Assembly: GCF_003018255.1 (NCBI RefSeq)
Contig: NZ_CP027440.1
DNA from: Escherichia coli
GTDB lineage: Bacteria > Pseudomonadota > Gammaproteobacteria > Enterobacterales > Enterobacteriaceae
DNA: 64,000 nt
Strand: one strand, 5' to 3'
Shown piece by piece: positions 1,412 to 33,702 of the stretch. The position numbers and the translations under genes were made by a program. The notes beneath the pieces are model-generated. The model saw only the letters and a program-made list of their open reading frames with translations. It was not told where the DNA came from and did no database searches. Positions within the stretch are counted from its first letter, which is position 1. The number at the start of each line of letters is the position of its first letter.

Positions 1412-3670
1412 ATGCGCGTAGATGCCATTGCTAAGGTCACCGGGCGGGCACGATATACTGACGATTATGTTATGGCGGGCATGTGTTACGCGAAATATGT
1501 ACGTAGCCCTATCGCACATGGTTATGCCATAAGTATTAATGATGAACAAGCCAGAAGTTTACCGGGCGTACTGGCGATTTTTACCTGGGAAGATGTGCCT
1601 GATATCCCATTCGCTACAGCTGGGCATGCCTGGACACTTGACGAAAACAAGCGCGATACCGCCGATCGCGCACTGCTAACTCGCCATGTTCGTCATCATG
1701 GTGACGCCGTTGCCATCGTCGTGGCCCGTGATGAACTCACGGCAGAAAAAGCGGCGCAATTGGTCAGCATTGAGTGGCAAGAATTACCCGTTATCACCAC
1801 GCCAGAAGCGGCGCTGGCAGATGACGCTGCACCAATCCATAACGGCGGCAATTTACTAAAACAAAGCTCGATGTCGACGGGTAATGTCCAACAAACAATC
1901 GATGCCGCCGATTACCAGGTGCAGGGGCACTATCAGACTCCCGTTATTCAACATTGTCATATGGAAAGCGTGACATCGCTGGCATGGATGGAGGATGACT
2001 CGCGAATTACCATCGTTTCCAGCACCCAGATCCCGCACATTGTTCGCCGTGTGGTTGGTCAGGCGCTGAATATTCCCTGGTCATGCGTACGAGTCATCAA
2101 ACCGTTTGTCGGTGGCGGTTTTGGTAATAAACAGGATGTACTGGAAGAGCCAATGGCGGCATTCCTGACCAGCAAGCTTGGCGGCATTCCGGTGAAAGTT
2201 TCCCTTAGCCGTGAAGAGTGTTTCCTCGCAACCCGTACCCGCCACGCTTTTACTATTGACGGGCAAATGGGCGTGAACCGCGACGGAACATTGAAAGGTT
2301 ATAGTCTGGATGTTCTGTCTAACACCGGCGCTTATGCATCTCACGGGCACTCCATCGCTTCTGCGGGCGGAAATAAAGTCGCTTACCTTTATCCTCGTTG
2401 TGCCTACGCTTACAGTTCAAAGACCTGCTATACCAACCTCCCCTCGGCTGGTGCGATGCGTGGTTATGGCGCGCCACAAGTCGTATTTGCCGTTGAGTCT
2501 ATGCTTGATGACGCCGCGACAGCGTTAGGTATTGATCCTGTTGAAATTCGTTTACGCAACGCCGCCCGCGAAGGAGATGCTAATCCGCTCACGGGCAAAC
2601 GTATTTACAGCGCAGGGTTGCCGGAGTGTCTTGAAAAAGGCCGGAAAATCTTTGAATGGGAAAAACGCCGTGCAGAGTGCCAGAACCAGCAAGGCAATTT
2701 ACGCCGCGGCGTTGGCGTCGCCTGTTTTAGCTACACCTCTAACACCTGGCCTGTCGGCGTAGAAATAGCAGGCGCGCGCCTGTTGATGAATCAGGATGGA
2801 ACCATCAACGTGCAAAGCGGCGCGACAGAAATCGGTCAGGGGGCCGACACCGTCTTCTCGCAAATGGTAGCAGAAACCGTGGGGGTTCCGGTCAGCGACG
2901 TTCGCGTTATTTCAACCCAAGATACCGACGTTACGCCGTTCGATCCCGGTGCATTTGCCTCACGCCAGAGCTATGTTGCCGCGCCTGCGCTGCGCAGTGC
3001 GGCACTGTTATTAAAGGAGAAAATCATCGCTCATGCCGCTGTCATGCTACATCAGTCAGCGATGAATCTTACCCTGATAAAAGGCCATATCGTGCTGGTT
3101 GAACGACCGGAAGAGCCATTAATGTCGTTAAAAGATTTGGCGATGGACGCCTTCTACCACCCTGAACGCGGCGGGCAGCTCTCTGCCGAAAGCTCCATCA
3201 AAACCACCACTAACCCACCAGCGTTTGGCTGTACCTTTGTTGATCTGACGGTCGATATTGCGCTGTGTAAAGTCACCATCAACCGCATCCTCAACGTTCA
3301 TGATTCGGGCCATATTCTTAATCCGCTACTGGCAGAAGGTCAGGTACACGGCGGAATGGGAATGGGCATTGGCTGGGCGCTATTTGAAGAGATGATCATT
3401 GATGCGAAAAGCGGCGTGGTCCGTAACCCCAATCTGCTGGATTACAAAATGCCGACCATGCCGGATCTGCCACAACTGGAAAGCGCGTTCGTCGAAATCA
3501 ATGAGCCGCAATCCGCATACGGACATAAGTCACTGGGTGAGCCACCAATAATTCCTGTTGCCGCTGCTATTCGTAACGCGGTGAAGATGGCTACCGGTGT
3601 TGCAATCAATACACTGCCGCTGACGCCAAAACGGTTATATGAAGAGTTCCATCTGGCAGGATTGATTTGA
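1412..3670 (+). CDS. xdhA: xanthine dehydrogenase, molybdenum-binding large subunit
   Basis: ORF in track 1373..3670; start trimmed to Met giving 752 aa (MRVDAIAKVTGRARY...), the length I recall for K-12 XdhA; aldehyde oxidase/xanthine dehydrogenase family. Confidence 0.9.
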   Translation: MRVDAIAKVTGRARYTDDYVMAGMCYAKYVRSPIAHGYAISINDEQARSLPGVLAIFTWEDVPDIPFATAGHAWTLDENKRDTADRALLTRHVRHHGDAVAIVVARDELTAEKAAQLVSIEWQELPVITTPEAALADDAAPIHNGGNLLKQSSMSTGNVQQTIDAADYQVQGHYQTPVIQHCHMESVTSLAWMEDDSRITIVSSTQIPHIVRRVVGQALNIPWSCVRVIKPFVGGGFGNKQDVLEEPMAAFLTSKLGGIPVKVSLSREECFLATRTRHAFTIDGQMGVNRDGTLKGYSLDVLSNTGAYASHGHSIASAGGNKVAYLYPRCAYAYSSKTCYTNLPSAGAMRGYGAPQVVFAVESMLDDAATALGIDPVEIRLRNAAREGDANPLTGKRIYSAGLPECLEKGRKIFEWEKRRAECQNQQGNLRRGVGVACFSYTSNTWPVGVEIAGARLLMNQDGTINVQSGATEIGQGADTVFSQMVAETVGVPVSDVRVISTQDTDVTPFDPGAFASRQSYVAAPALRSAALLLKEKIIAHAAVMLHQSAMNLTLIKGHIVLVERPEEPLMSLKDLAMDAFYHPERGGQLSAESSIKTTTNPPAFGCTFVDLTVDIALCKVTINRILNVHDSGHILNPLLAEGQVHGGMGMGIGWALFEEMIIDAKSGVVRNPNLLDYKMPTMPDLPQLESAFVEINEPQSAYGHKSLGEPPIIPVAAAIRNAVKMATGVAINTLPLTPKRLYEEFHLAGLI

Positions 3671-3680
3671 GGATAACATC

Positions 3681-4559
3681 ATGTTTGATTTTGCTTCTTA
3701 CCATCGCGCAGCAACCCTTGCCGATGCCATCAACCTGCTGGCTGACAACCCGCAGGCCAAACTGCTCGCCGGTGGCACTGACGTACTGATTCAGCTCCAC
3801 CATCACAATGACCGTTATCGCCATATTGTTGATATTCATAATCTGGCGGAGCTGCGGGGAATTACGCTGGCGGAAGATGGCTCACTACGTATCGGCTCTG
3901 CAACGACATTTACCCAGCTCATTGAAGATCCTGTAACTCAACGTCATCTCCCGGCGTTATGTGCTGCGGCCTCATCCATTGCCGGACCGCAGATCCGTAA
4001 CGTCGCTACCTACGGTGGAAATATTTGCAACGGTGCCACCAGCGCAGATTCTGCCACGCCAACGCTAATTTATGACGCGAAACTGGAGATCCACTCCCCG
4101 CGCGGTGTTCGTTTCGTCCCGATTAATGGCTTTCACACCGGGCCGGGCAAAGTGTCTCTTGAGCATGACGAAATCCTTGTCGCCTTTCATTTTCCGCCCC
4201 AGCCGAAAGAACACGCGGGCAGCGCGCATTTTAAATATGCCATGCGCGACGCAATGGATATTTCAACGATTGGCTGCGCCGCACATTGCCAACTGGATAA
4301 CGGCAATTTCAGCGAATTACGCCTGGCATTTGGTGTTGCCGCGCCAACGCCAATTCGCTGCCAACATGCCGAACAGACTGCACAAAATGCGCCATTAAAC
4401 CTGCAAACGCTGGAAGCCATCAGCGAATCAGTCCTGCAAGATGTCGCCCCGCGTTCGTCATGGCGGGCCAGTAAAGAGTTTCGTCTGCATCTCATCCAGA
4501 CGATGACCAAAAAAGTGATTAGCGAAGCCGTCGCCGCGGCGGGGGGAAAATTGCAATGA
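3681..4559 (+). CDS. xdhB: xanthine dehydrogenase, FAD-binding subunit
   Basis: 292 aa ORF directly downstream of xdhA; CO dehydrogenase flavoprotein-like; stop overlaps xdhC start (ATGA). Confidence 0.9.
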
Positions 4560-5035
4560 ATCACAGCGAAACAATTACCATCGAATGCACCATTAACGGG
4601 ATACCTTTTCAGCTTCACGCCGCACCAGGCACGCCGCTCTCGGAATTACTCCGCGAACAAGGACTGCTAAGTGTCAAACAAGGGTGCTGCGTGGGTGAAT
4701 GTGGTGCCTGTACGGTGCTGGTCGACGGCACAGCAATAGACAGTTGCTTATACCTTGCCGCCTGGGCTGAAGGAAAAGAGATCCGCACGCTGGAAGGTGA
4801 AGCGAAAGGCGGAAAACTTTCTCATGTTCAGCAGGCTTATGCGAAATCCGGCGCAGTGCAGTGCGGGTTTTGTACGCCGGGCCTGATTATGGCTACCACG
4901 GCAATGCTGGCGAAACCACGCGAGAAGCCATTAACCATTACGGAAATTCGTCGTGGACTGGCGGGAAATCTTTGTCGCTGCACGGGGTATCAGATGATTG
5001 TAAATACAGTTCTGGATTGCGAGAAAACGAAGTAA
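4556..5035 (+). CDS. xdhC: xanthine dehydrogenase, [2Fe-2S] iron-sulfur subunit
   Basis: 159 aa; 2Fe-2S cysteine motifs [11 protein letters not shown] and CGFCTPG. Confidence 0.9.
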
Positions 5036-5041
5036 AAGGAT

Positions 5042-5065
5042 ATCCGGCCTGAATTCAGGCCGGAT
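5042..5065. terminator. perfect hairpin between convergent xdhC and ygeV (likely bidirectional terminator)
   Basis: ATCCGGCCTGAATTCAGGCCGGAT is a perfect palindrome between the two convergent stops. Confidence 0.55.
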
Positions 5066-5074
5066 TCACTGAGG

Positions 5075-6853
5075 TTATGTGTTTAACAACTCATATTTCT
5101 TAATCTTGCGATAGAGCGTAGCAATGCCGATGCCCAGTTCATCAGCAACTTCCTTCTTGCTGTTATGACGTGAAAGCGCCTCGCGGATCATTTGCTTTTC
5201 CATCTCCTCCAGCGCCGTGCCGCCCGCATCATCGAGTGCCAGGTGCGCCTCACTGACCTCTGTTACATCACTTTGCTCCGTTGTGCCATTATTCAGCAGA
5301 TTTGGCGGCAATAGCGTGCTGTCGATAACTTCACCTGAAGGAACCACGTTAACCAGATATTCCATCAAATTGCTTAACTCGCGCAGGTTTCCGGGCCAAC
5401 GATGCTTACGCAATATTTCGACGACATCGGGAGCAATGCCCGGATAAACCGATCCCAGACGACGGGTATGCAGATGTAAAAAGTAATGCACCAGTAGTTC
5501 AATATCTTCCTGACGTTCACGCAGCGGTGGCAGAGTTATCGGGATAACATTAAGTCGGTAGAAGAGATCTTCGCGGAATTTACCTTCGGAAATGAACTGG
5601 GCCAAATTCTGGTTAGTTGCAGAAATGATGCGAATGTCGACTTGTATTGGGCTACTGGCACCAATCGGCAGAATTTCACGTGCCTCAATAGCGCGCAGTA
5701 ATTTAGCCTGCAACATTAATGGCATATCACCTATTTCATCGAGAAACAGCGTGCCCGTATTCGCCGCCTGAATCAACCCTGTTTTACCGTTGGCAGAAGC
5801 GCCAGTAAATGCGCCTTTAACATAACCGAACAGTTCGCTCTCCAGAAGCTGCTCCGGAATCGCGGCACAGTTGATAGCAATAAAAGGTTTATTCCGTCTT
5901 CCGCTCAACTTATGGATTGCACGGGCGACGACTTCTTTACCCGTGCCGCTTTCGCCAACCACCATAACGCTGGATGGGCTGGGTGCAATACGGCTAATGA
6001 GTCGTTTTAATTGCCGCATAACACGGCACTCGCCAACCAATTGTTCAATATGCGGTTCATCAGGTGCATTTGCTACAGAAAAACTGGTATGCGATTGGTG
6101 AAACGCCATTAAAAATAATTGTCGGCCCTGAATGTTATGCAATTGACCAATGATTAATTCACTTTTATCGTCCCACGAAACAATATGCTGCATATGTCCA
6201 TGGGTAAAATTACTCTCAAATGTTAATGGTCTGAAACGAACAGGTTTCCCAATAATATTATTTTGCACAACACCGAGTGTTTTTAAGGCAGTCTGATTAA
6301 CAAACTGAACCCGATTTTCGTCATCAACAACTAAAACGCCCTGATCCATATTATCGATCATGGTCGCGAATATTTTACTGATGTTATCTCCTGGCCCCTG
6401 ATCCTCCAGAAGTTTCGAAACAAAAATGGTGGATATATGGCGAACGTAATCAGAAAATTCGCGTAAATTATCACTGATATGTTCTTGTTGCTCGTGGGTA
6501 ACGGCAATCAAACTTATCACCCCAACACAACGATCCTGTAAAATGACAGGCGTACCCAGAAATGCTTTTTCGCGGCAATTTTCTTTACTATCGCAACCTT
6601 CACAAAGGGGATCGAAGCGAGACTGTGTCACAACTTTTTCAGTTTTCGTTTCCAGGACGTGGCGGAGCAGGCGTGAGTTGCCGCTCAACTGGCGACCAAG
6701 AAACTTCCCATACGCGCCCGTTCCGGCGACGCGACACAAGTTTTCATCAACGATCTCAACCTCAAGCTGCAAAACGCTGGCAAGCATTCTGGCAAAACGC
6801 TGAATTGTCGGTTGAATTTGCATCAATACTGACTGCGTAGTAGCAAGCTCCAT
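5075..6853 (-). CDS. ygeV: sigma-54-dependent transcriptional activator (bacterial enhancer-binding protein)
   Basis: 592 aa; Walker A GESGTGKE, sigma-54 contact motif GAFTGA, C-terminal HTH (IATLYRKIKKY), N-terminal sensory region. Confidence 0.9.
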   Translation of the reverse strand: MELATTQSVLMQIQPTIQRFARMLASVLQLEVEIVDENLCRVAGTGAYGKFLGRQLSGNSRLLRHVLETKTEKVVTQSRFDPLCEGCDSKENCREKAFLGTPVILQDRCVGVISLIAVTHEQQEHISDNLREFSDYVRHISTIFVSKLLEDQGPGDNISKIFATMIDNMDQGVLVVDDENRVQFVNQTALKTLGVVQNNIIGKPVRFRPLTFESNFTHGHMQHIVSWDDKSELIIGQLHNIQGRQLFLMAFHQSHTSFSVANAPDEPHIEQLVGECRVMRQLKRLISRIAPSPSSVMVVGESGTGKEVVARAIHKLSGRRNKPFIAINCAAIPEQLLESELFGYVKGAFTGASANGKTGLIQAANTGTLFLDEIGDMPLMLQAKLLRAIEAREILPIGASSPIQVDIRIISATNQNLAQFISEGKFREDLFYRLNVIPITLPPLRERQEDIELLVHYFLHLHTRRLGSVYPGIAPDVVEILRKHRWPGNLRELSNLMEYLVNVVPSGEVIDSTLLPPNLLNNGTTEQSDVTEVSEAHLALDDAGGTALEEMEKQMIREALSRHNSKKEVADELGIGIATLYRKIKKYELLNT

Positions 6854-7222
6854 AGCTTTACCTTCCAGACTTACTTAAAAGTCGATCATTGAAGACGTTG
6901 ATGGTTCATAGATCATGATGATATTAACTCAGGCGAAATTGGCTTTGATAAAAACATAAGATTTTTATCACTTTCTAATGAAATTATGGAAGAGATATCA
7001 CATTTCTATATCAATATGAGAATTACGGCGGTGAGTTTATCAAACTGAAGAGAGATCGCCTGTCCCTTTATCTTATTTCTGATACTTAGCAGCAAATAAA
7101 TAACGCGATAAAAAAAGCCAAACGTTTTCGTATTTTACAAACAACCAGAAGCTGGCATCAATTTGTGATCAACCCCACACATTATCCGTCAAATTAGTCT
7201 TTTGCAGCCCCGTGGATAATTC

Positions 7223-7238
7223 TGGCACACTTATTGTT
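7223..7238 (+). promoter_or_regulatory. candidate sigma-54 -24/-12 promoter upstream of ygeW
   Basis: TGGCACacttaTTGTT: exact -24 TGGCAC, correct spacing, -12 TTGT instead of TTGC; about 90 nt upstream of the ygeW ATG. Confidence 0.35.
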
Positions 7239-7328
7239 AGTCCCAGGTATAGCTGTGAAAACACCAATCACGTTGGCAAGTCACAGTGAAATAAACCACT
7301 TTGCCTGTCATTCCACTACCGGGACTTT

Positions 7329-8519
7329 ATGATGAAAACTGTTAATGAGCTGATTAAGGATATCAATTCGCTGACCTCTCACCTTCACGAGAAAGATTTT
7401 TTGTTAACGTGGGAACAGACGCCAGATGAACTGAAACAAGTACTGGACGTTGCCGCAGCATTAAAAGCACTGCGTGCTGAAAACATCTCAACCAAAGTCT
7501 TTAATAGTGGATTAGGTATTTCCGTATTCCGCGACAACTCCACCCGTACCCGCTTCTCTTATGCTTCCGCGCTTAACCTGCTCGGCCTTGCACAGCAAGA
7601 TCTCGACGAAGGCAAATCACAAATCGCTCACGGCGAAACCGTGCGTGAAACCGCCAATATGATCTCCTTCTGCGCCGACGCTATTGGTATTCGCGACGAT
7701 ATGTATCTGGGCGCAGGCAACGCCTATATGCGTGAAGTTGGCGCTGCACTTGATGACGGTTACAAGCAGGGTGTGCTGCCGCAACGTCCGGCTTTAGTGA
7801 ACCTGCAATGCGATATTGACCACCCGACTCAGTCAATGGCTGACCTGGCATGGTTACGTGAACACTTTGGTTCACTGGAAAACCTGAAAGGTAAAAAAAT
7901 CGCCATGACCTGGGCCTACTCCCCAAGCTATGGCAAACCGCTCTCTGTACCACAAGGCATCATCGGTCTGATGACTCGCTTCGGTATGGATGTCACCCTG
8001 GCCCATCCGGAAGGCTACGACCTGATCCCGGATGTCGTTGAAGTCGCTAAAAACAATGCTAAAGCCTCCGGCGGTAGCTTCCGTCAGGTCACCAGCATGG
8101 AAGAAGCCTTCAAAGACGCAGACATCGTTTATCCGAAGTCATGGGCACCTTACAAAGTGATGGAAGAGCGTACTGAATTGCTGCGTGCGAACGATCACGA
8201 AGGCTTAAAAGCACTGGAAAAACAGTGTCTGGCACAGAACGCGCAACACAAAGACTGGCATTGTACTGAAGAGATGATGGAACTGACCCGTGATGGCGAA
8301 GCCCTGTACATGCACTGCCTGCCAGCTGATATCAGCGGCGTATCCTGCAAAGAAGGTGAAGTGACTGAAGGCGTATTCGAAAAATACCGTATCGCTACCT
8401 ACAAAGAAGCCAGCTGGAAGCCTTATATCATCGCCGCGATGATCCTGTCCCGTAAATACGCCAAACCAGGTGCACTGCTCGAGCAACTGCTGAAAGAAGC
8501 GCAAGAACGCGTGAAATAA
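7329..8519 (+). CDS. ygeW: carbamoyltransferase (ornithine/aspartate transcarbamylase fold; recalled as oxamate carbamoyltransferase)
   Basis: 396 aa; carbamoyl-phosphate binding motif STRTR (NSTRTRFSYASA). Confidence 0.85.
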   Translation: MMKTVNELIKDINSLTSHLHEKDFLLTWEQTPDELKQVLDVAAALKALRAENISTKVFNSGLGISVFRDNSTRTRFSYASALNLLGLAQQDLDEGKSQIAHGETVRETANMISFCADAIGIRDDMYLGAGNAYMREVGAALDDGYKQGVLPQRPALVNLQCDIDHPTQSMADLAWLREHFGSLENLKGKKIAMTWAYSPSYGKPLSVPQGIIGLMTRFGMDVTLAHPEGYDLIPDVVEVAKNNAKASGGSFRQVTSMEEAFKDADIVYPKSWAPYKVMEERTELLRANDHEGLKALEKQCLAQNAQHKDWHCTEEMMELTRDGEALYMHCLPADISGVSCKEGEVTEGVFEKYRIATYKEASWKPYIIAAMILSRKYAKPGALLEQLLKEAQERVK

Positions 8520-8525
8520 CCCCTC

Positions 8526-8547
8526 GGGCCGATCAGCTGGTCGGCCC
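8526..8547 (+). terminator. hairpin downstream of ygeW (weak terminator or mRNA stabiliser)
   Basis: GGGCCGA-tcagctgg-TCGGCCC stem-loop right after the ygeW stop; weak T tract. Confidence 0.35.
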
Positions 8548-8576
8548 TCTATTTCCAGAGGCCAAAAGGATAGGAT

Positions 8577-9773: not shown

Positions 9774-9830
9774 TCACCCTATTGGAACTGCTCCCTGCAA
9801 AACGGGGAGTAAAAAATCTGGAGAAAAATA

Positions 9831-11042
9831 ATGGCTAAGAATATTCCATTCAAACTGATTCTTGAAAAAGCAAAAGATTACCAGGCAGACATGACTCGCT
9901 TCCTGCGCGATATGGTTGCTATTCCCAGTGAAAGCTGCGACGAGAAACGCGTAGTACATCGTATTAAAGAAGAGATGGAAAAAGTCGGCTTCGATAAAGT
10001 TGAAATCGACCCGATGGGCAACGTTCTCGGTTATATCGGCCACGGCCCGCGTCTGGTGGCAATGGACGCTCATATCGATACCGTCGGCATTGGCAACATC
10101 AAAAACTGGGACTTCGATCCGTACGAAGGCATGGAAACTGATGAGCTGATCGGTGGTCGCGGTACTTCCGACCAGGAAGGCGGCATGGCATCTATGGTTT
10201 ATGCCGGTAAAATCATTAAAGACCTCGGTCTGGAAGATGAATATACCCTGCTGGTTACCGGTACTGTGCAGGAAGAAGACTGCGACGGCCTGTGCTGGCA
10301 GTACATTATTGAACAATCCGGCATTCGCCCGGAATTTGTGGTCAGTACCGAACCAACCGACTGCCAGGTATACCGTGGTCAGCGCGGTCGTATGGAAATT
10401 CGTATTGATGTTCAGGGTGTGAGCTGCCACGGTTCTGCACCAGAACGCGGTGACAACGCCATTTTCAAAATGGGTCCGATTCTTGGCGAATTACAAGAAC
10501 TCTCCCAACGTCTGGGTTATGACGAATTCCTCGGCAAAGGCACCCTCACCGTTTCTGAAATCTTCTTCACATCCCCAAGCCGTTGCGCTGTAGCAGATAG
10601 CTGCGCCGTCTCTATTGACCGCCGTCTGACCTGGGGCGAAACCTGGGAAGGCGCGCTGGACGAAATCCGCGCCCTGCCTGCAGTACAGAAAGCTAACGCG
10701 GTTGTTTCTATGTACAACTACGACCGTCCGTCCTGGACTGGCCTGGTTTACCCAACCGAATGCTACTTCCCGACCTGGAAAGTGGAAGAAGATCACTTCA
10801 CCGTTAAAGCACTGGTGAATGCCTACGAAGGTCTGTTTGGCAAAGCGCCGGTTGTTGATAAGTGGACCTTCTCAACTAACGGCGTATCTATCATGGGCCG
10901 TCACGGCATTCCGGTGATCGGCTTTGGCCCGGGTAAAGAACCTGAAGCGCATGCACCTAACGAAAAAACCTGGAAATCTCACCTGGTGACCTGTGCCGCG
11001 ATGTACGCTGCAATCCCGTTAAGCTGGCTGGCAACCGAATAA
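9831..11042 (+). CDS. ygeY: M20-family metallopeptidase / amidohydrolase (ArgE/DapE-like)
   Basis: 403 aa; M20-type metal-ligand pattern. Confidence 0.8.
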
Positions 11043-25074: not shown

Positions 25075-25083
25075 GTAATAAAT

Positions 25084-25113: not shown

Positions 25114-25238
25114 AACGATGACTAAATAGTGACTGCGAAAATGAGATAAGCCGTTCTCAAGGCGTCCTGCGCCCCAAATTCGTGGGAATTTATTTTACTA
25201 ATTCAGATGATCAAATTTACTTTAAAAGGAGTGAAGGG

Positions 25239-26639: not shown

Positions 26640-26653
26640 CAGTAAAGGAGTCA

Positions 26654-27973
26654 ATGATGTCAGGAGAACACACGTTAAAAGCGGTACGAGGCAGTTTTAT
26701 TGATGTCACCCGTACGGTCGATAACCCGGAAGAAATTGCCTCTGCGCTGCGGTTTATTGAGGATGGTTTATTACTCATTAAACAGGGAAAAGTGGAATGG
26801 TTTGGCGAATGGGAAGACGGAAAGCATCAAATTCCTGACACCATTCGCGTGCGCGACTATCGCGGCAAACTGATAGTACCGGGCTTTGTCGATACACATA
26901 TCCATTATCCGCAAAGTGAAATGGTGGGGGCCTATGGTGAACAATTGCTGGAGTGGTTGAATAAACACACCTTCCCTACTGAACGTCGTTATGAGGATTT
27001 AGAGTACGCCCGCGAGATGTCAGCGTTCTTCATCAAGCAGCTTTTACGTAACGGAACCACCACGGCGCTGGTGTTTGGCACTGTTCATCCACAATCCGTT
27101 GATGCGCTGTTTGAAGCCGCCAGTCATATCAATATGCGTATGATTGCCGGTAAGGTGATGATGGACCGAAACGCACCGGATTATCTGCTCGACACTGCCG
27201 AAAGCAGCTATCACCAAAGCAAAGAACTGATTGAACGCTGGCACAAAAATGGTCGTCTGTTGTATGCGATTACGCCACGCTTCGCCCCTACCTCATCTCC
27301 TGAACAGATGGCGATGGCGCAACGCCTGAAAGAAGAATATCCGGATACGTGGGTACATACCCATCTCTGTGAAAACAAAGATGAAATTGCCTGGGTCAAA
27401 TCGCTTTATCCTGACCATGATGGTTATCTGGATGTTTACCATCAGTACGGTCTGACCGGTAAAAACTGTGTCTTTGCTCACTGCGTCCATCTCGAAGAAA
27501 AAGAGTGGGATCGTCTCAGCGAAACCAAATCCAGCATTGCTTTCTGTCCGACCTCCAACCTTTACCTCGGCAGCGGCTTATTCAACTTGAAAAAAGCATG
27601 GCAGAAGAAAGTCAAAGTGGGCATGGGAACGGATATCGGTGCCGGAACAACTTTTAACATGCTGCAAACGCTGAACGAAGCCTACAAGGTATTGCAATTA
27701 CAAGGCTATCGCCTCTCGGCATATGAAGCGTTTTACCTAGCCACGCTCGGCGGAGCGAAATCTCTGGGCCTTGACGATTTGATTGGCAACTTTTTACCTG
27801 GCAAAGAGGCTGATTTCGTGGTGATGGAACCCACTGCCACTCCGCTACAGCAGCTGCGCTATGACAACTCTGTTTCTTTAGTCGACAAATTGTTCGTGAT
27901 GATGACGTTGGGCGATGACCGTTCGATCTACCGCACCTACGTTGATGGTCGTCTGGTGTACGAACGCAACTAA
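26654..27973 (+). CDS. guaD: guanine deaminase
   Basis: Track ORF 26534..27973 has a spurious 40-aa extension overlapping xanQ; true start MMSGEHTLK (439 aa) preceded by AGGAG; HxH motif FVDTHIHYP. Confidence 0.9.
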   Translation: MMSGEHTLKAVRGSFIDVTRTVDNPEEIASALRFIEDGLLLIKQGKVEWFGEWEDGKHQIPDTIRVRDYRGKLIVPGFVDTHIHYPQSEMVGAYGEQLLEWLNKHTFPTERRYEDLEYAREMSAFFIKQLLRNGTTTALVFGTVHPQSVDALFEAASHINMRMIAGKVMMDRNAPDYLLDTAESSYHQSKELIERWHKNGRLLYAITPRFAPTSSPEQMAMAQRLKEEYPDTWVHTHLCENKDEIAWVKSLYPDHDGYLDVYHQYGLTGKNCVFAHCVHLEEKEWDRLSETKSSIAFCPTSNLYLGSGLFNLKKAWQKKVKVGMGTDIGAGTTFNMLQTLNEAYKVLQLQGYRLSAYEAFYLATLGGAKSLGLDDLIGNFLPGKEADFVVMEPTATPLQQLRYDNSVSLVDKLFVMMTLGDDRSIYRTYVDGRLVYERN

Positions 27974-28008
27974 TAATAAAACTTTAACATCCTCGTGAGG
28001 ACATCATT

Positions 28009-29376
28009 ATGTCTGGAGACATCCTACAAACACCGGACGCACCAAAGCCACAGGGCGCGCTGGATAATTATTTTAAAATTACCGCTCGTGGCAGTACCAT
28101 TCGTCAGGAAGTACTGGCTGGCTTAACGACCTTTCTGGCCATGGTTTATTCCGTTATCGTCGTTCCGGGAATGCTGGGCAAAGCAGGTTTTCCTCCCGCA
28201 GCTGTGTTTGTTGCCACCTGTCTGGTCGCGGGCTTCGGCTCGTTGCTGATGGGGTTATGGGCCAATTTGCCAATGGCGATTGGTTGCGCTATTTCCTTGA
28301 CGGCGTTTACCGCATTCAGTCTGGTACTCGGGCAACAAATTAGCGTTCCTGTCGCACTGGGCGCAGTCTTTCTGATGGGCGTCATCTTCACCGCTATTTC
28401 CGTAACCGGTGTGCGTACCTGGATCTTACGTAATTTGCCGATGGGGATCGCTCACGGTACAGGTATCGGTATCGGCCTGTTTCTGCTGCTGATTGCTGCT
28501 AACGGTGTGGGAATGGTTATCAAAAACCCGATTGAAGGCTTGCCAGTGGCGCTCGGTGCGTTTACCTCCTTCCCGGTGATGATGAGCTTACTGGGGCTGG
28601 CGGTCATCTTCGGTCTGGAGAAGTGTCGCGTACCCGGCGGGATCTTGTTGGTGATTATTGCAATTTCGATCATCGGCTTAATCTTTGACCCAGCGGTGAA
28701 GTACCACGGTCTGGTGGCGATGCCAAGCCTGACTGGCGAAGATGGTAAGTCTCTGATTTTCAGCCTCGATATTATGGGCGCACTCCAGCCAACTGTACTT
28801 CCGAGTGTACTGGCATTGGTGATGACCGCAGTGTTCGACGCCACTGGCACCATCCGTGCCGTCGCCGGTCAGGCGAATTTGTTGGATAAAGACAACCAGA
28901 TCATCAACGGCGGCAAAGCCCTGACCAGTGACTCAGTAAGTTCAATATTCTCCGGCCTGGTGGGCGCAGCGCCCGCGGCGGTTTATATCGAATCAGCGGC
29001 AGGAACCGCCGCCGGGGGGAAAACCGGTTTAACCGCAGCCGTTGTTGGTGCGTTGTTCCTGATGATTCTGTTTTTATCACCGTTGTCGTTTCTGATCCCC
29101 GGTTATGCTACTGCCCCCGCTCTGATGTACGTGGGTTTGCTGATGTTAAGCAACGTCTCGAAGCTGGATTTCAACGATTTTATTGACGCAATGGCTGGCC
29201 TGGTGTGTGCCGTGTTCATCGTTCTGACTTGTAATATCGTTACCGGTATTATGCTGGGCTTTGTAACATTGGTGGTGGGTCGCGTCTTTGCGCGCGAATG
29301 GCAAAAGCTGAATATTGGTACGGTGATCATTACTGCCGCACTGGTCGCGTTTTACGCGGGTGGTTGGGCAATCTAA
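28009..29376 (+). CDS. ghxQ: guanine/hypoxanthine permease (NCS2, AzgA-like)
   Basis: 455 aa; polytopic membrane protein. Confidence 0.85.
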
Positions 29377-29382
29377 TAGATC

Positions 29383-29404
29383 CTCCGCGCCTTTCAGCGC
29401 GGAG
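29383..29404. terminator. hairpin between convergent ghxQ and ygfS (probable bidirectional terminator)
   Basis: CTCCGCGC-ctttca-GCGCGGAG, followed by ATTTCTTTC on the + strand. Confidence 0.5.
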
Positions 29405-29411
29405 ATTTCTT

Positions 29412-29903
29412 TCACAGAGGATTCTCACCGCTGGCAACAATACGCTGCTGGCGGACTCGCCTGAGTTCTCTTTCAGTAAGCAACTGCAGCGCCTGTGTTG
29501 GGCAAGATTCAACGCAGGCTGGCCCCTCTTCCCGCTGTTCACAGAGATCGCATTTCACGATTTGTTGCCGGGTATCCCCCGGCAACGACTGAATGGTGAT
29601 CATTCCAAACGGGCACGCACTGACGCAACTCTGACAGCCAATACAACGGGCAGAATTGGTCTGCACCACCTGCTCGCCCATCGTCAGCGCCCCCACGGGG
29701 CAAGCGCTAACACAAGGGGCGTTTTCACACTGATGGCACATCACCGGCGCACTGATGCTGTCCAGTCGCTGTACCTTCAGCCGGGGTAAAAAGACATCGG
29801 CATTCAACTCCTGTTCTGAAGGGTGAGCGACCACACAGGCTACTTCACAAGTACGGCAGCCAATACAGTCAGCCGGATTAACGATAATTAACGATTTCAT
29901 CAC
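29412..29903 (-). CDS. ygfS: 4Fe-4S ferredoxin-type electron-transfer protein
   Basis: 163 aa (possibly 162 from the second Met); multiple CxxCxxCxxxCP motifs. Confidence 0.85.
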
Positions 29904-31819
29904 GATGCCTTCGTATCAAACAGAGTTAACATATCGCGCGCCGCCTGCCTTCCTGCGGCCATTGCAGTGACAACCAGATCCGCGCCATGAACAGCATCAC
30001 CACCAGCAAAGACTTTTTTCAGATGCGTCTGGGTAGGTAAATACCCGACGTCACCGGTTTGAATCAGGCCCCATTTATCGAGTTTAATTCCGCTGCCCTG
30101 CAACCACGGCATGGCATGCGCCTGGAAACCAAAGGCCATAATGAGAACATCGGCGGGCAATTCAAACTCTGAACCCGCTACCGGACGAGGACGACGGCGA
30201 CCATCCGGCCCCGGCTCACCCATGGCGGTACGAATCAGGCCCACCGCAGTTAAACGCCCATCTTCGTCACAAGCGATATATTGCGGCTGAACATTGAACT
30301 GAAACTTGACACCTTCCTCGCGCGCATTGACCACCTCTTTGCGCGAGCCCGGCATACTGACTTCATCACGACGATACGCGCAGGTCACGCTGGCGGCATT
30401 GAGGCGGATGGAAGTCCGCAAACAATCCATGGTCGTATCGCCACCGCCCAATACCACGACTCGCTTACCTTCCACATCCGTCAGCGGATACTCTTCAGAC
30501 TCCGGCAACCCCATGAGCTGGCGGGTATGGGCAGTCAGGAACGGTAGAGCCTGAATGACACCGGGCGCATCTTCATGCGGCAGATCTGCTCGCATCATCC
30601 CGTAAGTCCCCACGCCGATGAAAACTGCATCATATTCAGAAGTTAAATCGCTAAAGGTAATATCGCGGCCAATTTCACAGTTAAGATGAAAGTCGATTCC
30701 CATTGCGGTGAATATCTCTCGCCGCTGGCTTAATACCGTTTTATCGAGTTTGAAAGGAGGTATGCCAAAAGTCAGCATACCGCCAATTTCTGGATGGCGA
30801 TCAAAGACATCAACCTGAACTCCTGCGCGCGCCAAAATATCAGCACACCCTAACCCTGCAGGCCCTGCGCCAATCACCGCCACTTTTTCGATACGGGGAA
30901 CAACTTTGCTGACATCGGGACGCCAGCCCATCGCCAGCGCGGTATCGGTAATGTAGCGTTCCAGATTCCCGATAGAGACTGCGCCAGAGTGATCTTTCAA
31001 AGTACATGCGCCTTCACAAAGACGGTCCTGTGGACATACCCTGCCGCAGATTTCTGGCAAGGAACTGGTCTGGTGGCAAAGTTCTGCCGCTTCAATAATC
31101 TTTCCTTCCTGCACCAGACGGATGTAATCCGGAATAGCGTTATGCAGCGGGCAATGCCAGTTGCAGTTAGCTTTTTCGGCGCAATAAACACAGCGGTCAC
31201 TCTCATAAGTCGCTTGTTGTGGATCCAGCCCGTAATAGATTTCGCCAAAGTGGGTTTTCCGTTCACTCGCTGAAATTTTATCTGCGCCTTTACGCGAGTT
31301 AACGGGGAGCAACGCTGCACTGCGAGATGGCTGAGCGTCTGATGACGCTTTTCCTGCTGCCGTTTTGCGCTGGCGGGCCACCTTTATCTGCTGCAACCCT
31401 TTATCGTCCATCAGCCGTAACGCCTGTGTTGGGCAGACTTCAATACAGGCTTGCGTGCCGGAACTGCGCTGGTTACAAAGGTCGCATTTCTGCGCAATCG
31501 TATCGACCATCTCAACGACGCCAAAGGGGCAAGCGATTGCGCATCTTTTACAACCAATACATTTTTGCTCGTCCAGTTGTACGCTATCGGGCTGGAAAGT
31601 CAGAGCATTAACCGGACAAGCCGTAACGCAAGGGGCATTGTTGCAGTGATGGCAGGCCACCGGATTCGCAGCCTGGCCTTTCCCTACAACGTGGATACGC
31701 GGTCGAAAGTCACTGTGACTCAGCGGCCAGTTTTCTTGATTATGTGCCATCGCACAGGCAATTTCACAAGCATGACAGCCTATACATTCCGCAGCTTCAG
31801 CAGCGATAAACTTATTCAT
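29900..31819 (-). CDS. ygfT: Fe-S flavoprotein oxidoreductase (N-terminal 4Fe-4S ferredoxin domain plus glutamate synthase beta-like FAD/NAD(P) domain)
   Basis: Track ORF to 31834; start trimmed to [15 protein letters not shown] (639 aa); [14 protein letters not shown] dinucleotide-binding motif. Confidence 0.8.
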
Positions 31820-32101
31820 TTGCATCCCTTTCATTTAATGAGTTATGTCTTCTCAAATTTCGCGATGCAATAAATGGGCATGTATTAGGTAGCATGGCCG
31901 ATTTAATTATAATTTTGCGACTGAGTTCAAATTATTGCCCCTCAATCTATGCAGCTTTCATTATTTCAACATTGCCGATCAAAAGAATGCTATCCAGATA
32001 AAAACGATTAAATGCGAGAGTGCGACATGCCAGAATGATTAATGAAATATCAATATGAGAAAATTACAGATAATTCCATTGTCAGGTTCTCTTCTCATTT
32101 T

Positions 32102-32116
32102 CGTGGTTTAACCACG
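32102..32116. promoter_or_regulatory. palindrome CGTGGTT-T-AACCACG in the ygfT-uacT divergent region
   Basis: 7-bp arms with 1-nt centre, read directly from the sequence; about 140 nt upstream of the uacT start. Confidence 0.3.
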
Positions 32117-32169
32117 ATTATGTGATTACCTCCGCAATTCCTGTCTCTAACTCCCCTTCCTCGCAAAAC

Positions 32170-32185
32170 TGGCACTCCACGAGCA
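32170..32185 (+). promoter_or_regulatory. weak candidate sigma-54 -24/-12 element upstream of uacT
   Basis: TGGCACtccacgaGCA: exact -24, correct GG-N10-GC spacing, -12 lacks the TT. Confidence 0.25.
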
Positions 32186-32253
32186 TGTATTTAGACAGTT
32201 TCATGAACGTAAACGGTTGCTTTTTACTCTGGCGGGCGAAAGGAGAAACACTG

Positions 32254-33702
32254 ATGAGCGCCATAGATTCCCAACTTCCCTCATCTTCTGGGCAAGACCG
32301 CCCAACTGATGAGGTTGACCGCATATTATCACCAGGAAAGCTGATCATACTCGGTCTGCAACACGTCCTTGTCATGTACGCAGGTGCAGTCGCTGTTCCT
32401 CTTATGATTGGCGACCGACTGGGCCTCTCAAAAGAAGCTATTGCGATGCTCATTAGCTCGGATCTCTTTTGCTGCGGGATCGTCACATTATTGCAATGTA
32501 TCGGTATCGGCCGCTTTATGGGGATCCGCCTGCCGGTGATTATGTCGGTGACCTTCGCCGCTGTAACACCAATGATAGCCATTGGGATGAACCCGGATAT
32601 CGGCCTGCTGGGGATATTTGGTGCCACTATCGCCGCGGGTTTTATCACCACATTATTAGCGCCACTTATCGGTCGCTTGATGCCTTTATTCCCGCCACTG
32701 GTTACCGGTGTGGTTATTACTTCTATCGGACTTAGCATCATTCAGGTGGGTATTGACTGGGCCGCAGGAGGTAAAGGGAATCCGCAATATGGTAATCCCG
32801 TTTATTTAGGTATCTCCTTTGCCGTCTTAATTTTTATCTTGCTCATTACTCGCTATGCGAAAGGATTTATGTCCAACGTCGCCGTATTACTGGGGATTGT
32901 ATTTGGCTTTTTACTTTCGTGGATGATGAATGAAGTCAATTTATCCGGGCTACATGATGCCTCGTGGTTTGCGATTGTCACCCCGATGTCGTTTGGTATG
33001 CCGATTTTTGATCCCGTTTCCATTCTGACCATGACTGCCGTGTTAATCATCGTGTTTATCGAGTCGATGGGGATGTTCCTGGCACTGGGTGAAATAGTTG
33101 GTCGTAAACTCTCTTCACACGATATTATTCGCGGGCTGCGTGTCGATGGCGTAGGGACAATGATAGGCGGAACGTTTAACAGCTTCCCCCATACGTCATT
33201 TTCACAAAACGTTGGCCTGGTTAGCGTGACGCGCGTTCATAGCCGCTGGGTGTGTATTTCTTCGGGAATTATATTAATCCTGTTTGGCATGGTGCCAAAA
33301 ATGGCGGTGCTGGTCGCCTCCATTCCGCAATTTGTGCTGGGCGGTGCTGGGCTGGTGATGTTCGGCATGGTACTGGCGACAGGGATTCGAATTCTGTCGC
33401 GCTGTAACTACACCACCAACCGTTACAACCTCTATATTGTGGCGATCAGTCTCGGCGTTGGCATGACGCCAACGCTCTCTCACGATTTCTTTTCTAAGTT
33501 ACCGGCCGTACTGCAACCGTTGCTGCATAGCGGCATTATGCTCGCAACCCTTAGCGCCGTTGTGCTGAACGTCTTCTTTAATGGCTATCAGCATCATGCT
33601 GATCTGGTGAAGGAATCCGTCTCTGATAAAGATTTAAAAGTCAGGACAGTACGTATGTGGCTTCTGATGCGCAAGCTGAAGAAAAATGAGCATGGAGAAT
33701 AA
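32254..33702 (+). CDS. uacT: uric acid (urate) transporter, NCS2/NAT family
   Basis: Track ORF 32122..33702; start trimmed to MSAIDSQLP (482 aa) preceded by AGGAGAAA. Confidence 0.85.
   Translation: MSAIDSQLPSSSGQDRPTDEVDRILSPGKLIILGLQHVLVMYAGAVAVPLMIGDRLGLSKEAIAMLISSDLFCCGIVTLLQCIGIGRFMGIRLPVIMSVTFAAVTPMIAIGMNPDIGLLGIFGATIAAGFITTLLAPLIGRLMPLFPPLVTGVVITSIGLSIIQVGIDWAAGGKGNPQYGNPVYLGISFAVLIFILLITRYAKGFMSNVAVLLGIVFGFLLSWMMNEVNLSGLHDASWFAIVTPMSFGMPIFDPVSILTMTAVLIIVFIESMGMFLALGEIVGRKLSSHDIIRGLRVDGVGTMIGGTFNSFPHTSFSQNVGLVSVTRVHSRWVCISSGIILILFGMVPKMAVLVASIPQFVLGGAGLVMFGMVLATGIRILSRCNYTTNRYNLYIVAISLGVGMTPTLSHDFFSKLPAVLQPLLHSGIMLATLSAVVLNVFFNGYQHHADLVKESVSDKDLKVRTVRMWLLMRKLKKNEHGE

Follow-up and report, generated by a model that had tools for sequence, protein, structure and literature searches.

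The xdhA–uacT Urate Catabolic Cluster of Escherichia coli and Candidate Enhancers of Its sigma54 Activator YgeV

Introduction

Which metabolic system is encoded by the 22 genes that lie between xdhA and uacT on a 64,000-nucleotide stretch of Escherichia coli DNA (NCBI RefSeq assembly GCF_003018255.1, contig NZ_CP027440.1; the whole stretch is called the window in the following), and how are these genes controlled? The stretch contains the E. coli xdhA–uacT locus, the anaerobic urate/purine catabolic cluster, which has already been described genetically, biochemically and in vivo. A description made earlier from the nucleotide sequence (the original prediction) proposed a system for anaerobic purine and urate catabolism centred on molybdenum enzymes and referred, correctly, to recent reports on this cluster; the assignment is borne out by published reconstitution. 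The overall reading is that purines are imported, converted to urate and degraded by an anaerobic reductive route via 2,8-dioxopurine, with further cofactor, electron and regulatory parts that are inferred. Its probability is estimated at roughly 0.93. The cluster is real, medically relevant and not new: the pathway to pyruvate, ammonia and ATP was worked out in 2023–2025. No new pathway-level biology arises from the stretch, because the importance of the cluster is recognised and its chemistry is published. The only new element of the present analysis is the computational assignment of YgeV/DioR enhancers, which refines the regulation and is no discovery about the system itself.

Humans lack uricase, and about one third of urate leaves the body via the gut, where it is degraded by bacteria that carry the cluster. 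This makes the pathway relevant to hyperuricaemia, gout and kidney disease. Serum urate in mice was lowered by an E. coli Nissle strain in which the cluster is overexpressed (Li et al. 2025, PMC12507026), and the pathway increases fitness in gnotobiotic mice (Liu et al. 2025, bioRxiv 10.1101/2025.04.24.650524). Native regulation, comprising YgeV, its enhancers, its effector and repression via CRP, is the least understood layer, and engineering work at present gets around it by using synthetic promoters. The candidate YgeV sites described below specify which bases could be mutated or built into a switch that responds to the urate pathway.

Identity and Conservation of the Locus

All 22 genes from xdhABC through uacT (window positions 1373–33702) are intact as uninterrupted open reading frames (ORFs), in the order and orientation given in the original prediction, and their products share 97.3–100% identity with their E. 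coli K-12 counterparts. The boundaries first proposed for the cluster, 1412 and 33702, correspond to the K-12-style ATG of xdhA and to the stop codon of uacT; in the RefSeq annotation of the closest genome, xdhA starts at 1373 in the same ORF. The RefSeq annotations of strain JNE23-011 and of K-12 MG1655 show the same gene order: glyU, actS, xdhABC, ygeV (minus strand), ygeW, ygeX/dpaL, ygeY, hyuA, yqeA/arcC, yqeB (minus), yqeC (minus), mocA, ygfK, ssnA, ygfM, xdhD, xanQ, guaD, ghxQ, ygfS (minus), ygfT (minus) and uacT, followed on the 3' side by yqfG, yqfH, idi, lysS, prfB and recJ.

JNE23-011 is the closest record, with 99.8% identity in the first half of the region and 99.3% in the second half, while most other E. 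coli strains are about 97.5–98.5% identical to the stretch; no genome identical to the window was found in the collection of 5426 complete E. coli genomes. In this collection, bases 1412–21412 have a match in 5331 genomes (at least 80% coverage in 5150) and bases 16000–34000 in 5407 genomes (at least 80% coverage in 5159), and the cluster is present in about 95% of complete genomes. The remaining ~5% (roughly 270 of 5426) lack at least one fifth of the cluster, and a few E. coli genomes keep the idi flank only.

The uricolytic cluster of K-12, which encodes the 'reductive uric acid degradation' or '2,8-dioxopurine' pathway (Li et al. 2025, Life Metab; Liu et al. 2023 and 2025), is the same locus, with identical gene order and orientation. 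Its sigma54 promoters and candidate enhancers either agree fully with those of the window or deviate in one or two bases. Differences are found at strain level only; they concern the yqeA–yqeB spacer and the longer xdhA start call in the RefSeq annotation of the closest strain. The published activities of K-12 enzymes can be transferred to the present strain because the proteins are 97–100% identical.

Families were assigned by NCBIfam model scores against curated cut-offs, with Pfam used for domains. Every protein except GhxQ falls into a family that agrees with its name, GhxQ being identified via K-12 identity. Specific equivalog or hypothetical-equivalog models are reached by XdhA, XdhB, XdhC, YgeW, diaminopropionate ammonia-lyase, YgeY, D-hydantoinase, carbamate kinase, YqeB, YqeC, MocA, YgfK, SsnA, YgfM, XdhD, guanine deaminase and YgfT. 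XanQ and UacT exceed the cut-off for general NCS2 or xanthine-permease models only, and YgeV and YgfS match family-level models below cut-off (the sigma54 AAA+ core and a HydN-like ferredoxin, respectively).

The clustering of these genes is not due to chance: it is kept in E. coli genomes, and homologs are also neighbours in other genera. Homologs of ygeV, ygeX, ygeW, ygeY, ygfK, yqeA, ssnA, hyuA, uacT and xdh adjoin one another in Sedimentibacter, Clostridium, Ruthenibacterium and Propionigenium.

Two Reductions Define the Route

Two reductive steps define the chemistry of the pathway: XdhD carries out the 6-dehydroxylation of urate, and YgfK a dearomatisation. XdhD (22204–25074, plus strand; TIGR03313, 2117 bits against a cut-off of 1102) is the molybdenum/Fe-S subunit of the first enzyme. 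It is 99.4% identical to the assayed K-12 enzyme and has a glutamate at residue 606, the active-site residue proposed to orient urate. YgfM (21428–22207, plus strand; TIGR03312, 486 bits against a cut-off of 241) is the flavin adenine dinucleotide (FAD) subunit of XdhD. Purified XdhD, co-purifying with a protein of ~30 kDa that is putatively YgfM, converts urate to 2,8-dioxopurine ('yanthine') with NADH, and urate builds up in a ΔxdhD strain (Li et al. 2025). In the second study, XdhAC/XdhD was named '2,8-dioxopurine dehydrogenase' (Liu et al. 2025).

The second reduction is assigned to YgfK (16948–20046, plus strand; TIGR03315, 1780 bits), an NAD(P)H:2,8-dioxopurine oxidoreductase that performs a reductive dearomatisation. 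Its Fer4_20 and Pyr_redox_2 core resembles dihydropyrimidine dehydrogenase (DPD), NfnA and GltD, while the N-terminal ~450 and C-terminal ~140 residues gave no Pfam or PDB sequence match. YgfK was described as 'NADPH:2,8-dioxopurine oxidoreductase' with selectivity for 2,8-dioxopurine (Liu et al. 2025). Only 2 bp separate ygfK from ssnA (20049–21377, plus strand; TIGR03314, 737 bits), so that the dearomatising reductase directly adjoins the amidohydrolase that opens the reduced pyrimidine ring. Together with NAD(P)H, YgfK and SsnA convert 2,8-dioxopurine to ureidomethylhydantoin and a little 5-ureidodihydrouracil (Li et al. 2025). HyuA (11095–12480, plus strand; TIGR02033, 675 bits), which also scores as a dihydropyrimidinase, is the hydantoinase that opens the hydantoin/dihydrouracil ring to yield 2,3-diureidopropionate; the C. 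difficile enzyme was used for this step in the published assay (Li et al. 2025).

In the sequence of events demonstrated for the K-12 proteins, the molybdenum enzyme XdhD–YgfM removes the 6-oxo group of urate with NADH, giving 2,8-dioxopurine, and the Fe-S flavoprotein YgfK reduces the pyrimidine ring with NAD(P)H. SsnA then opens the reduced ring, and HyuA opens the remaining hydantoin to 2,3-diureidopropionate. A reconstitution with E. coli XdhD–YgfM, YgfK, SsnA, YgeW, YgeY and YgeX has been reported (Li et al. 2025), and the same scheme was reached independently (Liu et al. 2025). In anaerobic K-12 cultures, labelled urate is converted to acetate, and the single-gene mutants all block the formation of labelled acetate (Liu et al., 2022 preprint).

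These data revise several steps of the original prediction. It had counted XdhD with YgfM among the molybdenum hydroxylases and placed hydroxylation before ring cleavage, whereas XdhD–YgfM works reductively and YgfK dearomatises its substrate before SsnA opens the ring. YgfK had been listed as an electron module and is instead the flavin/Fe-S reductase that acts on 2,8-dioxopurine itself, and SsnA, listed as a second amidohydrolase, is a ring-opening enzyme and not a second deaminase.

In older database entries, ygfK-ssnA-ygfM-xdhD was read as a selenate reductase system. The corresponding names persist in RefSeq and NCBIfam ('putative selenate reductase subunit YgfK', 'Se_sel_red_Mo'), and the genes co-occur with selenium-utilisation markers. 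Recombinant YgfK, however, neither needs selenate nor is stimulated by it and is selective for 2,8-dioxopurine (Liu et al. 2025), XdhD–YgfM acts on urate, and a labile selenium cofactor of the molybdenum enzymes accounts better for the connection with selenium. The biochemistry of YgfK and XdhD–YgfM largely refutes the selenate reductase assignment, which retains very little credibility.

A second alternative is the classical clostridial purine fermentation, to which the original prediction had likened the cluster. In this pathway, xanthine is opened hydrolytically and degraded via 4-ureido-5-imidazolecarboxylate and formiminoglycine to glycine. The gene content is superficially similar, as it includes molybdenum hydroxylases, amidohydrolases and a selenium linkage. 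The intermediates detected are nevertheless 2,8-dioxopurine, ureidomethylhydantoin, 2,3-diureidopropionate, mono-ureido diaminopropionate and diaminopropionate, with no imidazole derivatives, and formiminotransferase, glycine reductase and formyl-tetrahydrofolate enzyme are represented by none of the 22 genes. Li et al. (2025) explicitly set the 'xanthinase pathway' apart from the reductive route, which is also that of C. sporogenes and C. difficile. With differing intermediates and the branch enzymes absent among the 22 genes, the classical fermentation is rejected and its probability is close to nil.

The reductive 2,8-dioxopurine route is closer in its logic to reductive pyrimidine degradation, in which PydA (dihydropyrimidine dehydrogenase), PydB (dihydropyrimidinase) and PydC likewise reduce a ring, of the uracil type, first and then open it hydrolytically. 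The likeness to PydA lies in the YgfK core, which aligns with DPD, GltD and NfnA, and that to PydB in the dihydropyrimidinase score of HyuA. In contrast to the Pyd route, the substrate of the E. coli cluster is a purine that first loses its 6-oxo group and contains two rings, giving rise to two ureido groups, and the product is diaminopropionate instead of a β-amino acid.

Ureido Group Removal, ATP Formation and Pyruvate Release

The second half of the pathway is encoded by ygeW, ygeX, ygeY, hyuA and yqeA. HyuA, YgeW, YgeY and YgeX all score above curated cut-offs, and their genes lie in one co-oriented operon with spacers of 47–57 bp. YgeW (7332–8519, plus strand; NF005538, 825 bits) is a knotted carbamoyltransferase that phosphorolyses 2,3-diureidopropionate to produce carbamoyl phosphate. 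The STRTR motif noted in the original prediction is indeed intact and lies at residue 70, and an HPTQ motif of the HPxQ type for carbamoyl-phosphate binding is found at residue 164. YqeA/ArcC (12528–13460, plus strand; TIGR00746, 386 bits against a cut-off of 358) is a carbamate kinase forming ATP from carbamoyl phosphate and ADP. YgeY (9831–11042, plus strand; TIGR03526, 722 bits; 100% identical to K-12) is an M20 amidohydrolase, which takes off the ureido group that is left and thereby yields diaminopropionate, and YgeX/DpaL (8577–9773, plus strand; TIGR03528, 651 bits) is a pyridoxal phosphate-dependent diaminopropionate ammonia-lyase that releases pyruvate and two molecules of ammonia.

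The ATP-yielding carbamate end of the original prediction holds, as E. coli YgeW and YqeA produce ATP in vitro from 2,3-diureidopropionate, ADP and Mg2+ (Liu et al. 2025). With phosphate, YgeW removes one ureido group, and YgeY and YgeX then generate pyruvate (Li et al. 2025). In the steps demonstrated for the K-12 proteins, YgeW transfers one carbamoyl group to phosphate and YqeA uses the carbamoyl phosphate to convert ADP to ATP, while YgeY hydrolyses the other ureido group and YgeX converts 2,3-diaminopropionate to pyruvate and ammonia.

This ATP-forming branch resembles the arginine deiminase pathway, in which ornithine carbamoyltransferase and carbamate kinase achieve the same sequence of ureido phosphorolysis, carbamoyl phosphate formation and substrate-level ATP synthesis. 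The resemblance extends to the STRTR and HPxQ motifs of YgeW and to the ArcC-type kinase encoded in the same operon. YgeW differs from ornithine carbamoyltransferase in being a member of the knotted subfamily (NF005538) and in having 2,3-diureidopropionate instead of citrulline as its substrate.

Purine Import and Urate Formation

Urate can enter the pathway directly or be formed from other purines. UacT (32254–33702, plus strand; TIGR03173, 510 bits; 100% identical to K-12) is a urate:H+ symporter, XanQ (25239–26639, plus strand; NCS2 family model above cut-off; 99.8% identical to K-12) a xanthine:H+ symporter and GhxQ (28009–29376, plus strand; named after RefSeq and 99.3% identical to K-12 GhxQ) a guanine/hypoxanthine transporter for which no NCBIfam model matched. 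Guanine is deaminated to xanthine by guanine deaminase, GuaD (26657–27973, plus strand; TIGR02967, 634 bits). The xanthine dehydrogenase is composed of the molybdenum subunit XdhA (1373–3670, plus strand; NF007426, 1483.7 bits against a cut-off of 916), the FAD subunit XdhB (3681–4559, plus strand; NF007427, 532 bits; 99.0% identical to K-12) and the [2Fe-2S] subunit XdhC (4556–5035, plus strand; NF007387, 340 bits).

The XdhA-containing enzyme oxidises hypoxanthine and xanthine to urate; the reverse conversion of urate to xanthine is also possible and could serve salvage (Li et al. 2025). XdhABC is the xanthine oxidiser in vivo, as a K-12 ΔxdhA strain fails to consume xanthine (Li et al. 2025). 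In the scheme established with the K-12 proteins, XanQ imports xanthine, GhxQ guanine and hypoxanthine, and UacT urate; GuaD deaminates guanine, and XdhABC converts hypoxanthine and xanthine to urate.

Transcription Units and sigma54 Promoters

A scan for the sigma54 consensus TGGCAC-N5-TTGC with two mismatches allowed returned 85 matches, against 84.9 expected by chance, and therefore carries no weight on its own. The scan becomes informative once it is limited to operon leaders and compared with published chromatin immunoprecipitation sequencing (ChIP-seq) sites. Three leaders contain an element that agrees base for base with a site of Bonocora 2015: CTGGCGTAAATCTTGCC upstream of xdhABC (1301–1317, plus strand; OS29; identical in K-12), CTGGCACACTTATTGTT upstream of ygeWXY-hyuA-yqeA (7222–7238, plus strand; OS30) and GTGGTGCGATTGTTGCT upstream of ygfK-ssnA-ygfM-xdhD (16859–16875, plus strand; OS31). 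The ygeV/ygeW spacer also contains a peak for the RpoN holoenzyme in genomic SELEX (systematic evolution of ligands by exponential enrichment). A fourth element, CATGCCCATTTATTGCA upstream of ygfTS (31866–31882, minus strand), differs by two mismatches from ChIP-seq site OS32. A sigma54-like sequence, CTGGCACTCCACGAGCA (32169–32185), is situated 106 bp downstream of the candidate enhancer in the ygfT/uacT spacer, with 69 bp left to the uacT start. It was not counted as a promoter, as no ChIP-seq peak is reported there; uacT is nonetheless a member of the YgeV iModulon.

Based on these elements and on hairpins, the likely transcription units are xdhABC, ygeV, ygeWXY-hyuA-yqeA, yqeCB, mocA, ygfK-ssnA-ygfM-xdhD, xanQ-guaD-ghxQ, ygfTS and uacT. 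A hairpin between the convergent xdhC and ygeV genes (5042–5065; 10-bp stem with 7 GC pairs), detected by consensus scan only, probably acts as a two-way terminator. A terminator hairpin follows yqeA (13467–13492, plus strand; 10-bp stem with 8 GC pairs, then a T-tract). The GC-rich hairpin behind xdhD (25084–25099) is a likely operon boundary, in line with the position of xanQ-guaD-ghxQ outside the YgeV iModulon, and a strong hairpin is located behind ghxQ (29383–29404). In K-12, the yqeA–yqeB spacer carries an insertion of ~180 bp made up of repetitive extragenic palindromic (REP) sequences and bacterial interspersed mosaic elements (BIME), flanked by two copies of the terminator hairpin GGCCGGGTGGGTAATACCATCCGGCC (K-12 locus L002, 15895–16114); the present strain has one hairpin and a spacer of 40 bp (13461–13500), compared with 220 bp in K-12.

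The published YgeV iModulon contains xdhABC, ygeWXY, hyuA, ygfK, ssnA, ygfM, xdhD, ygfT and uacT, while xanQ-guaD-ghxQ, mocA and yqeBC are outside. These last three units also lack sigma54 elements and upstream activating sequences (UAS). As they lie outside the YgeV iModulon, the 32 kb constitute one metabolic system and not one regulon, and the view of the whole region as a single regulatory unit does not hold.

A native Crp site in the ygeV/ygeW spacer and repression of urate degradation by glucose have been reported (Li et al. 2025). A CRP-like site, TGTGATCAACCCCACA (7164–7179), can be read about 45 bp upstream of the ygeW sigma54 element, and the sequence suggests that the reported Crp site corresponds to exactly these bases.

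YgeV and Its Candidate DioR-Type Enhancers

YgeV (5075–6853, minus strand) is a sigma54 enhancer-binding protein with an N-terminus that is faintly GAF-like, PAS and AAA+ domains, and a helix-turn-helix of the Fis type. The Pfam matches are Sigma54_activat (2.5e-70) and HTH_8 (5.7e-13), and the GAFTGA motif is located at residue 347. According to a citing paper, ygfT expression was reported to be lower in a ygeV mutant.

On reading the leaders, palindromes of the type TATCA-N3-TGA were seen upstream of the sigma54 elements, and a 15-mer, ATATCAATATGAGAA, is identical in the ygeV/ygeW and ygfT/uacT spacers. As the palindrome had been chosen after looking, an independent test was based on clostridial sites. 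DioR is a predicted clostridial sigma54 activator whose function was listed as 'Unknown' and whose enhancers, such as ATTTATCATAATGATAAGG, are located upstream of -24/-12 promoters at distances of 100–250 bp (Nie et al. 2019, PMC6615313). The genes predicted to be controlled by DioR are dpaL-pyrC-argE, ygeW-ygfK-ssnA-ygeY, yqeB, pbuX, yqeC-ygfJ-yqeB-xdhC and xdhABC, and in C. tetani the predicted control is limited to dpaL (Nie et al. 2019). A symmetrised position weight matrix (PWM) was built exclusively from 17 published DioR sites of C. botulinum, C. tetani and C. difficile and scanned over the full 64 kb with an intergenic-composition background. Each leader was dinucleotide-shuffled 2000 times, the shuffle fraction being the share of shuffles that reach the observed score.

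The four sigma54 leaders contain the PWM matches of rank 1, 2, 3 and 5 of the 64 kb, and every position outside the first five ranks scores at most 8.8. The best candidate UAS, AAATATCAATATGAGAAAA, is found in the divergent ygfT/uacT spacer (32045–32063; score 17.2, shuffle fraction 0.002), 163 bp from the ygfT sigma54 site. The second, CTATATCAATATGAGAATT, in the ygeV/ygeW spacer (7006–7024; score 15.5, shuffle fraction 0.0035), is located 198 bp upstream of the ygeW sigma54 element and is accompanied by a weaker second candidate at 7035–7053. The third, CTTTATCATAATGATAAGG, in the mocA–ygfK spacer (16675–16693; score 15.2, shuffle fraction 0.0005), lies 166 bp upstream of the ygfK sigma54 element; it has a perfect TTATCA-N3-TGATAA core and shares 18 of 19 bases with the site of the ygeW operon of C. 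botulinum (CBO2885). In the xdhA leader, the match of rank 5, ATTTATCACATTGATTTTA (1167–1185; score 10.05, shuffle fraction 0.0585; identical in K-12), lies 117 bp upstream of the sigma54 element, measured from the UAS end to the motif start. All distances between UAS and sigma54 element (117–199 bp) are within the range given by Nie et al. (2019), and the candidate sites are identical in K-12 with the exception of one base in the ygfK site. Judged by these sequence matches, YgeV is probably the DioR of E. coli, and the four leader palindromes are its predicted binding sites.

In such a circuit, YgeV would switch on the four sigma54 promoters of xdhABC, ygeW-yqeA, ygfK-xdhD and ygfTS, with CRP adding glucose repression. 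The four promoters would jointly serve the formation of urate (xdhABC), its reduction and the opening of the rings (ygfK-xdhD), the ATP-yielding liberation of the C3 unit (ygeW-yqeA) and the supply of electrons (ygfTS).

The Activator–Enhancer–Promoter Arrangement in Other Phyla

A scan of genome contigs for YgeV was dominated by the generic AAA+ peptide FLDEIGDM. Among the matches listed were at least about 12 full-length YgeV homologs with 33–38% identity and no close enterobacterial orthologs, and the distant full-length homologs were therefore used for comparison. The YgeV homolog is encoded beside ygeX-ygeW-ygeY-ygfK-yqeA-ssnA-uacT in Sedimentibacter (L005), beside ygeX, ygeY, ssnA, uacT and hyuA in Propionigenium maris (L013; Fusobacteriota), beside ygeX in Ruthenibacterium (L007) and beside ygfK-ssnA and xdhC-xdhA in Clostridium thailandense (L011). 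In all four loci, ygeV is followed by two to three high-scoring UAS (up to 21 bits), a canonical TTGGCA-N7-TTGCT promoter and the first pathway gene. In Citrobacter werkmanii (L004, 9600–10005), the gene of a YgeV paralog (38% identity) diverges from just two genes, ygeX and that of an M20 hydrolase, and the divergent spacer contains the sigma54 element CTGGTAAGCATTTTGCTC and DioR-type (UAS-like) palindromes. The full arrangement is absent from YgeV-like loci without pathway genes; one locus from a metagenome-assembled genome of the Bacillota (L008) has a UAS-like pair and a sigma54 site, but pathway genes were not detected in its vicinity.

The recognition helix LGIGIATLYRKI is common to E. 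coli YgeV and the homologs of Sedimentibacter, C. thailandense and P. maris, and differs in one residue in Ruthenibacterium and in C. werkmanii. Two further homologs (L003 and L006) possess the same helix without the arrangement, and the remaining ones have the helix LGIS(R/K)xTLYRKL.

The E. coli arrangement thus resembles the clostridial DioR regulon, in which the enhancer-binding protein is likewise encoded beside dpaL/ygeW/ygfK/ssnA/yqeB/xdh and the same TTATCA-N3-TGATAA enhancer precedes the -24/-12 promoters (Nie et al. 2019). That regulon was defined in Clostridiales only and before the pathway was known. A further difference concerns the number of UAS per promoter, which is mostly one in E. 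coli and two to three in Clostridia and Propionigenium. The neighbours of the Citrobacter paralog, together with the prediction for C. tetani DioR, hint that diaminopropionate catabolism is the core target of the YgeV/DioR family. Since dpaL/ygeX is also the gene most consistently placed first behind the promoter, the effector of YgeV may be a late intermediate (diaminopropionate or a ureido derivative) rather than urate.

The urate clusters of C. sporogenes and C. difficile share with E. coli the chemistry of SsnA, HyuA, YgeY and YgeX, the YqeB/YqeC pair, a selenium-linked molybdenum enzyme that produces 2,8-dioxopurine and a sigma54 activator, DioR, whose enhancer motif is the same. In contrast to the E. 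coli enzyme, the clostridial molybdenum enzyme is devoid of the FAD subunit YgfM and makes no use of NAD(P)H. In C. difficile, moreover, YgfK is replaced by the PydA-like UacX, and YgeW and YqeA by the hydrolase UacY; for the latter reason, no ATP is gained at the ureido step.

These comparisons also bear on the possibility that the 32 kb are a chance neighbourhood of separate modules for purine salvage, D-hydantoinase/carbamoylase activity, diaminopropionate detoxification and cofactor genes. Such a view could draw on the several transcription units, of which xanQ-guaD-ghxQ, mocA and yqeCB have neither sigma54/UAS signals nor iModulon membership, on the ability of XdhABC to divert urate to xanthine for salvage and on the restriction of the predicted C. 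tetani DioR regulon to dpaL. It is highly improbable all the same: sequential in vitro reconstitution joins the enzymes by shared intermediates, every single-gene mutant blocks labelled acetate, the genes are co-expressed as one iModulon, the sigma54 promoters share a common enhancer motif and synteny is kept across phyla.

Proposed Roles in Cofactor Maturation and Electron Supply

Several genes of the cluster had been called poorly defined. For YgfK and YgeY this no longer applies, as both now have assigned reactions, while YqeB/YqeC and YgfS/YgfT, and also YgeV, are still weakly defined. MocA (16048–16626, plus strand; TIGR03310, 216 bits) is a molybdenum cofactor cytidylyltransferase and would supply the molybdopterin cytosine dinucleotide (MCD) form of the cofactor to Xdh-type enzymes. 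YqeB (13501–15126, minus strand; TIGR03309, 414 bits) is a putative XdhC-like maturation factor linked to a labile selenium cofactor, and yqeC (15174–15944, minus strand; TIGR03172, 238 bits) is a putative marker gene for selenium-cofactor biosynthesis. Both markers and mocA are located beside the molybdenum enzyme genes, as in the selenium-dependent molybdenum hydroxylase trait, and selD is located outside the window. A role of YqeB in selenium cofactor maturation is suggested by its co-occurrence with SelD and by the report that it is genetically required in C. difficile, and the molybdenum enzymes of C. sporogenes need selenium and SelD (Liu et al. 2025). YqeB and YqeC would accordingly be expected to install the labile selenium ligand.

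The pathway requires four electrons per urate (Li et al. 2025), which makes a relay from formate to NAD(P)H or to the enzymes via YgfS and YgfT plausible. YgfS (29412–29900, minus strand) is a HydN-type poly-ferredoxin of putative function with two CxxCxxCxxxC motifs; it is most similar to HydN and to the N-terminal parts of AegA/YgfT, in each case with a score below cut-off. YgfT (29900–31819, minus strand; NF009451, 1500 bits) consists of a HydN-type ferredoxin domain fused to a GltD-like NAD(P)-flavoprotein. Urate strongly induces the ygfT gene (Liu et al., 2022 preprint), and according to papers citing Iwadate & Kato 2019, ygfT is tied genetically to formate-dependent urate use. YgfS and YgfT would pass electrons from formate into the two NAD(P)H-dependent reductive steps.

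Weak Points of the Reading

Nothing was found that speaks against the identity of the locus or the core pathway, and the weak points lie in the inferred parts. Two of them concern disagreements between the reconstitution studies. Li et al. (2025) and Liu et al. (2025) differ on whether YgfK uses NADH as well as NADPH, and they are at odds on the ureido group that is taken by YgeW. The product was identified as albizziin, i.e., with the 2-ureido group removed, and albizziin was converted to pyruvate by YgeY and YgeX (Li et al. 2025); in the other study, the product was 3-amino-2-ureidopropanoate, with the 3-ureido group removed (Liu et al. 2025). Family analogy would favour removal of the 3-ureido group, because knotted N-acyl-ornithine transcarbamylases act on the distal nitrogen and M20 enzymes of the ArgE/DapE type take Nα-acyl groups.

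Two further points concern cofactor and electron supply. Selenium dependence has been demonstrated in Clostridia, not in E. coli. The YgfT paralog AegA did not interact with FDH-H, the formate dehydrogenase H, or affect its activity, which leaves the route from formate to YgfT unproven.

The remaining points concern regulation. The xdhA-leader UAS is the weakest of the four and marginal (score 10, shuffle fraction 0.06), and the ygfT sigma54 site is weak, with ChIP-seq site OS32 itself having a low motif score of 4.5 (Bonocora 2015). The PWM match of rank 4 (14.1 bits), CATTCTCACATTGAGAAAA, is located inside yqeC (15284–15302; identical in K-12), about 160 bp upstream of the yqeB start, and no GG-N10-GC sigma54 element is present between this copy and yqeB. 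It may be a functional internal site or a chance match, and because it scores high without a sigma54 element downstream, some other PWM matches may be due to chance as well. Although yqeB is a predicted DioR target in C. difficile (Nie et al. 2019), it is not claimed as a target of YgeV, given that such an element is missing downstream of the motif copy. Finally, no paper linking DioR to YgeV or giving a YgeV binding site was found in the searchable literature.

The regulatory proposal in its full form combines YgeV as a DioR ortholog acting at four enhancers, a module kept across Pseudomonadota, Bacillota and Fusobacteriota, an effector that is maybe a late intermediate, and YgfS/YgfT as the formate route. 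For this combination the odds are only slightly better than even.

Other Features of the Window

Beyond the cluster, the window differs from K-12 by the absence of ygfF (b2902, 744 bp), which in K-12 encodes a putative oxidoreductase between bglA and gcvP; its place is taken by a 163-bp spacer with a REP-like hairpin (45879–46041). Rfam models identify tRNA-Gly (glyU, 56–126), 6S RNA (ssrS, 55848–56031) and the SibC antitoxin RNA opposite the ibsC toxin gene (56680–56830). The prfB gene (36070–37168, minus strand) contains the annotated programmed frameshift and, like ssrS, SibC and glyU, is an ordinary E. coli feature.

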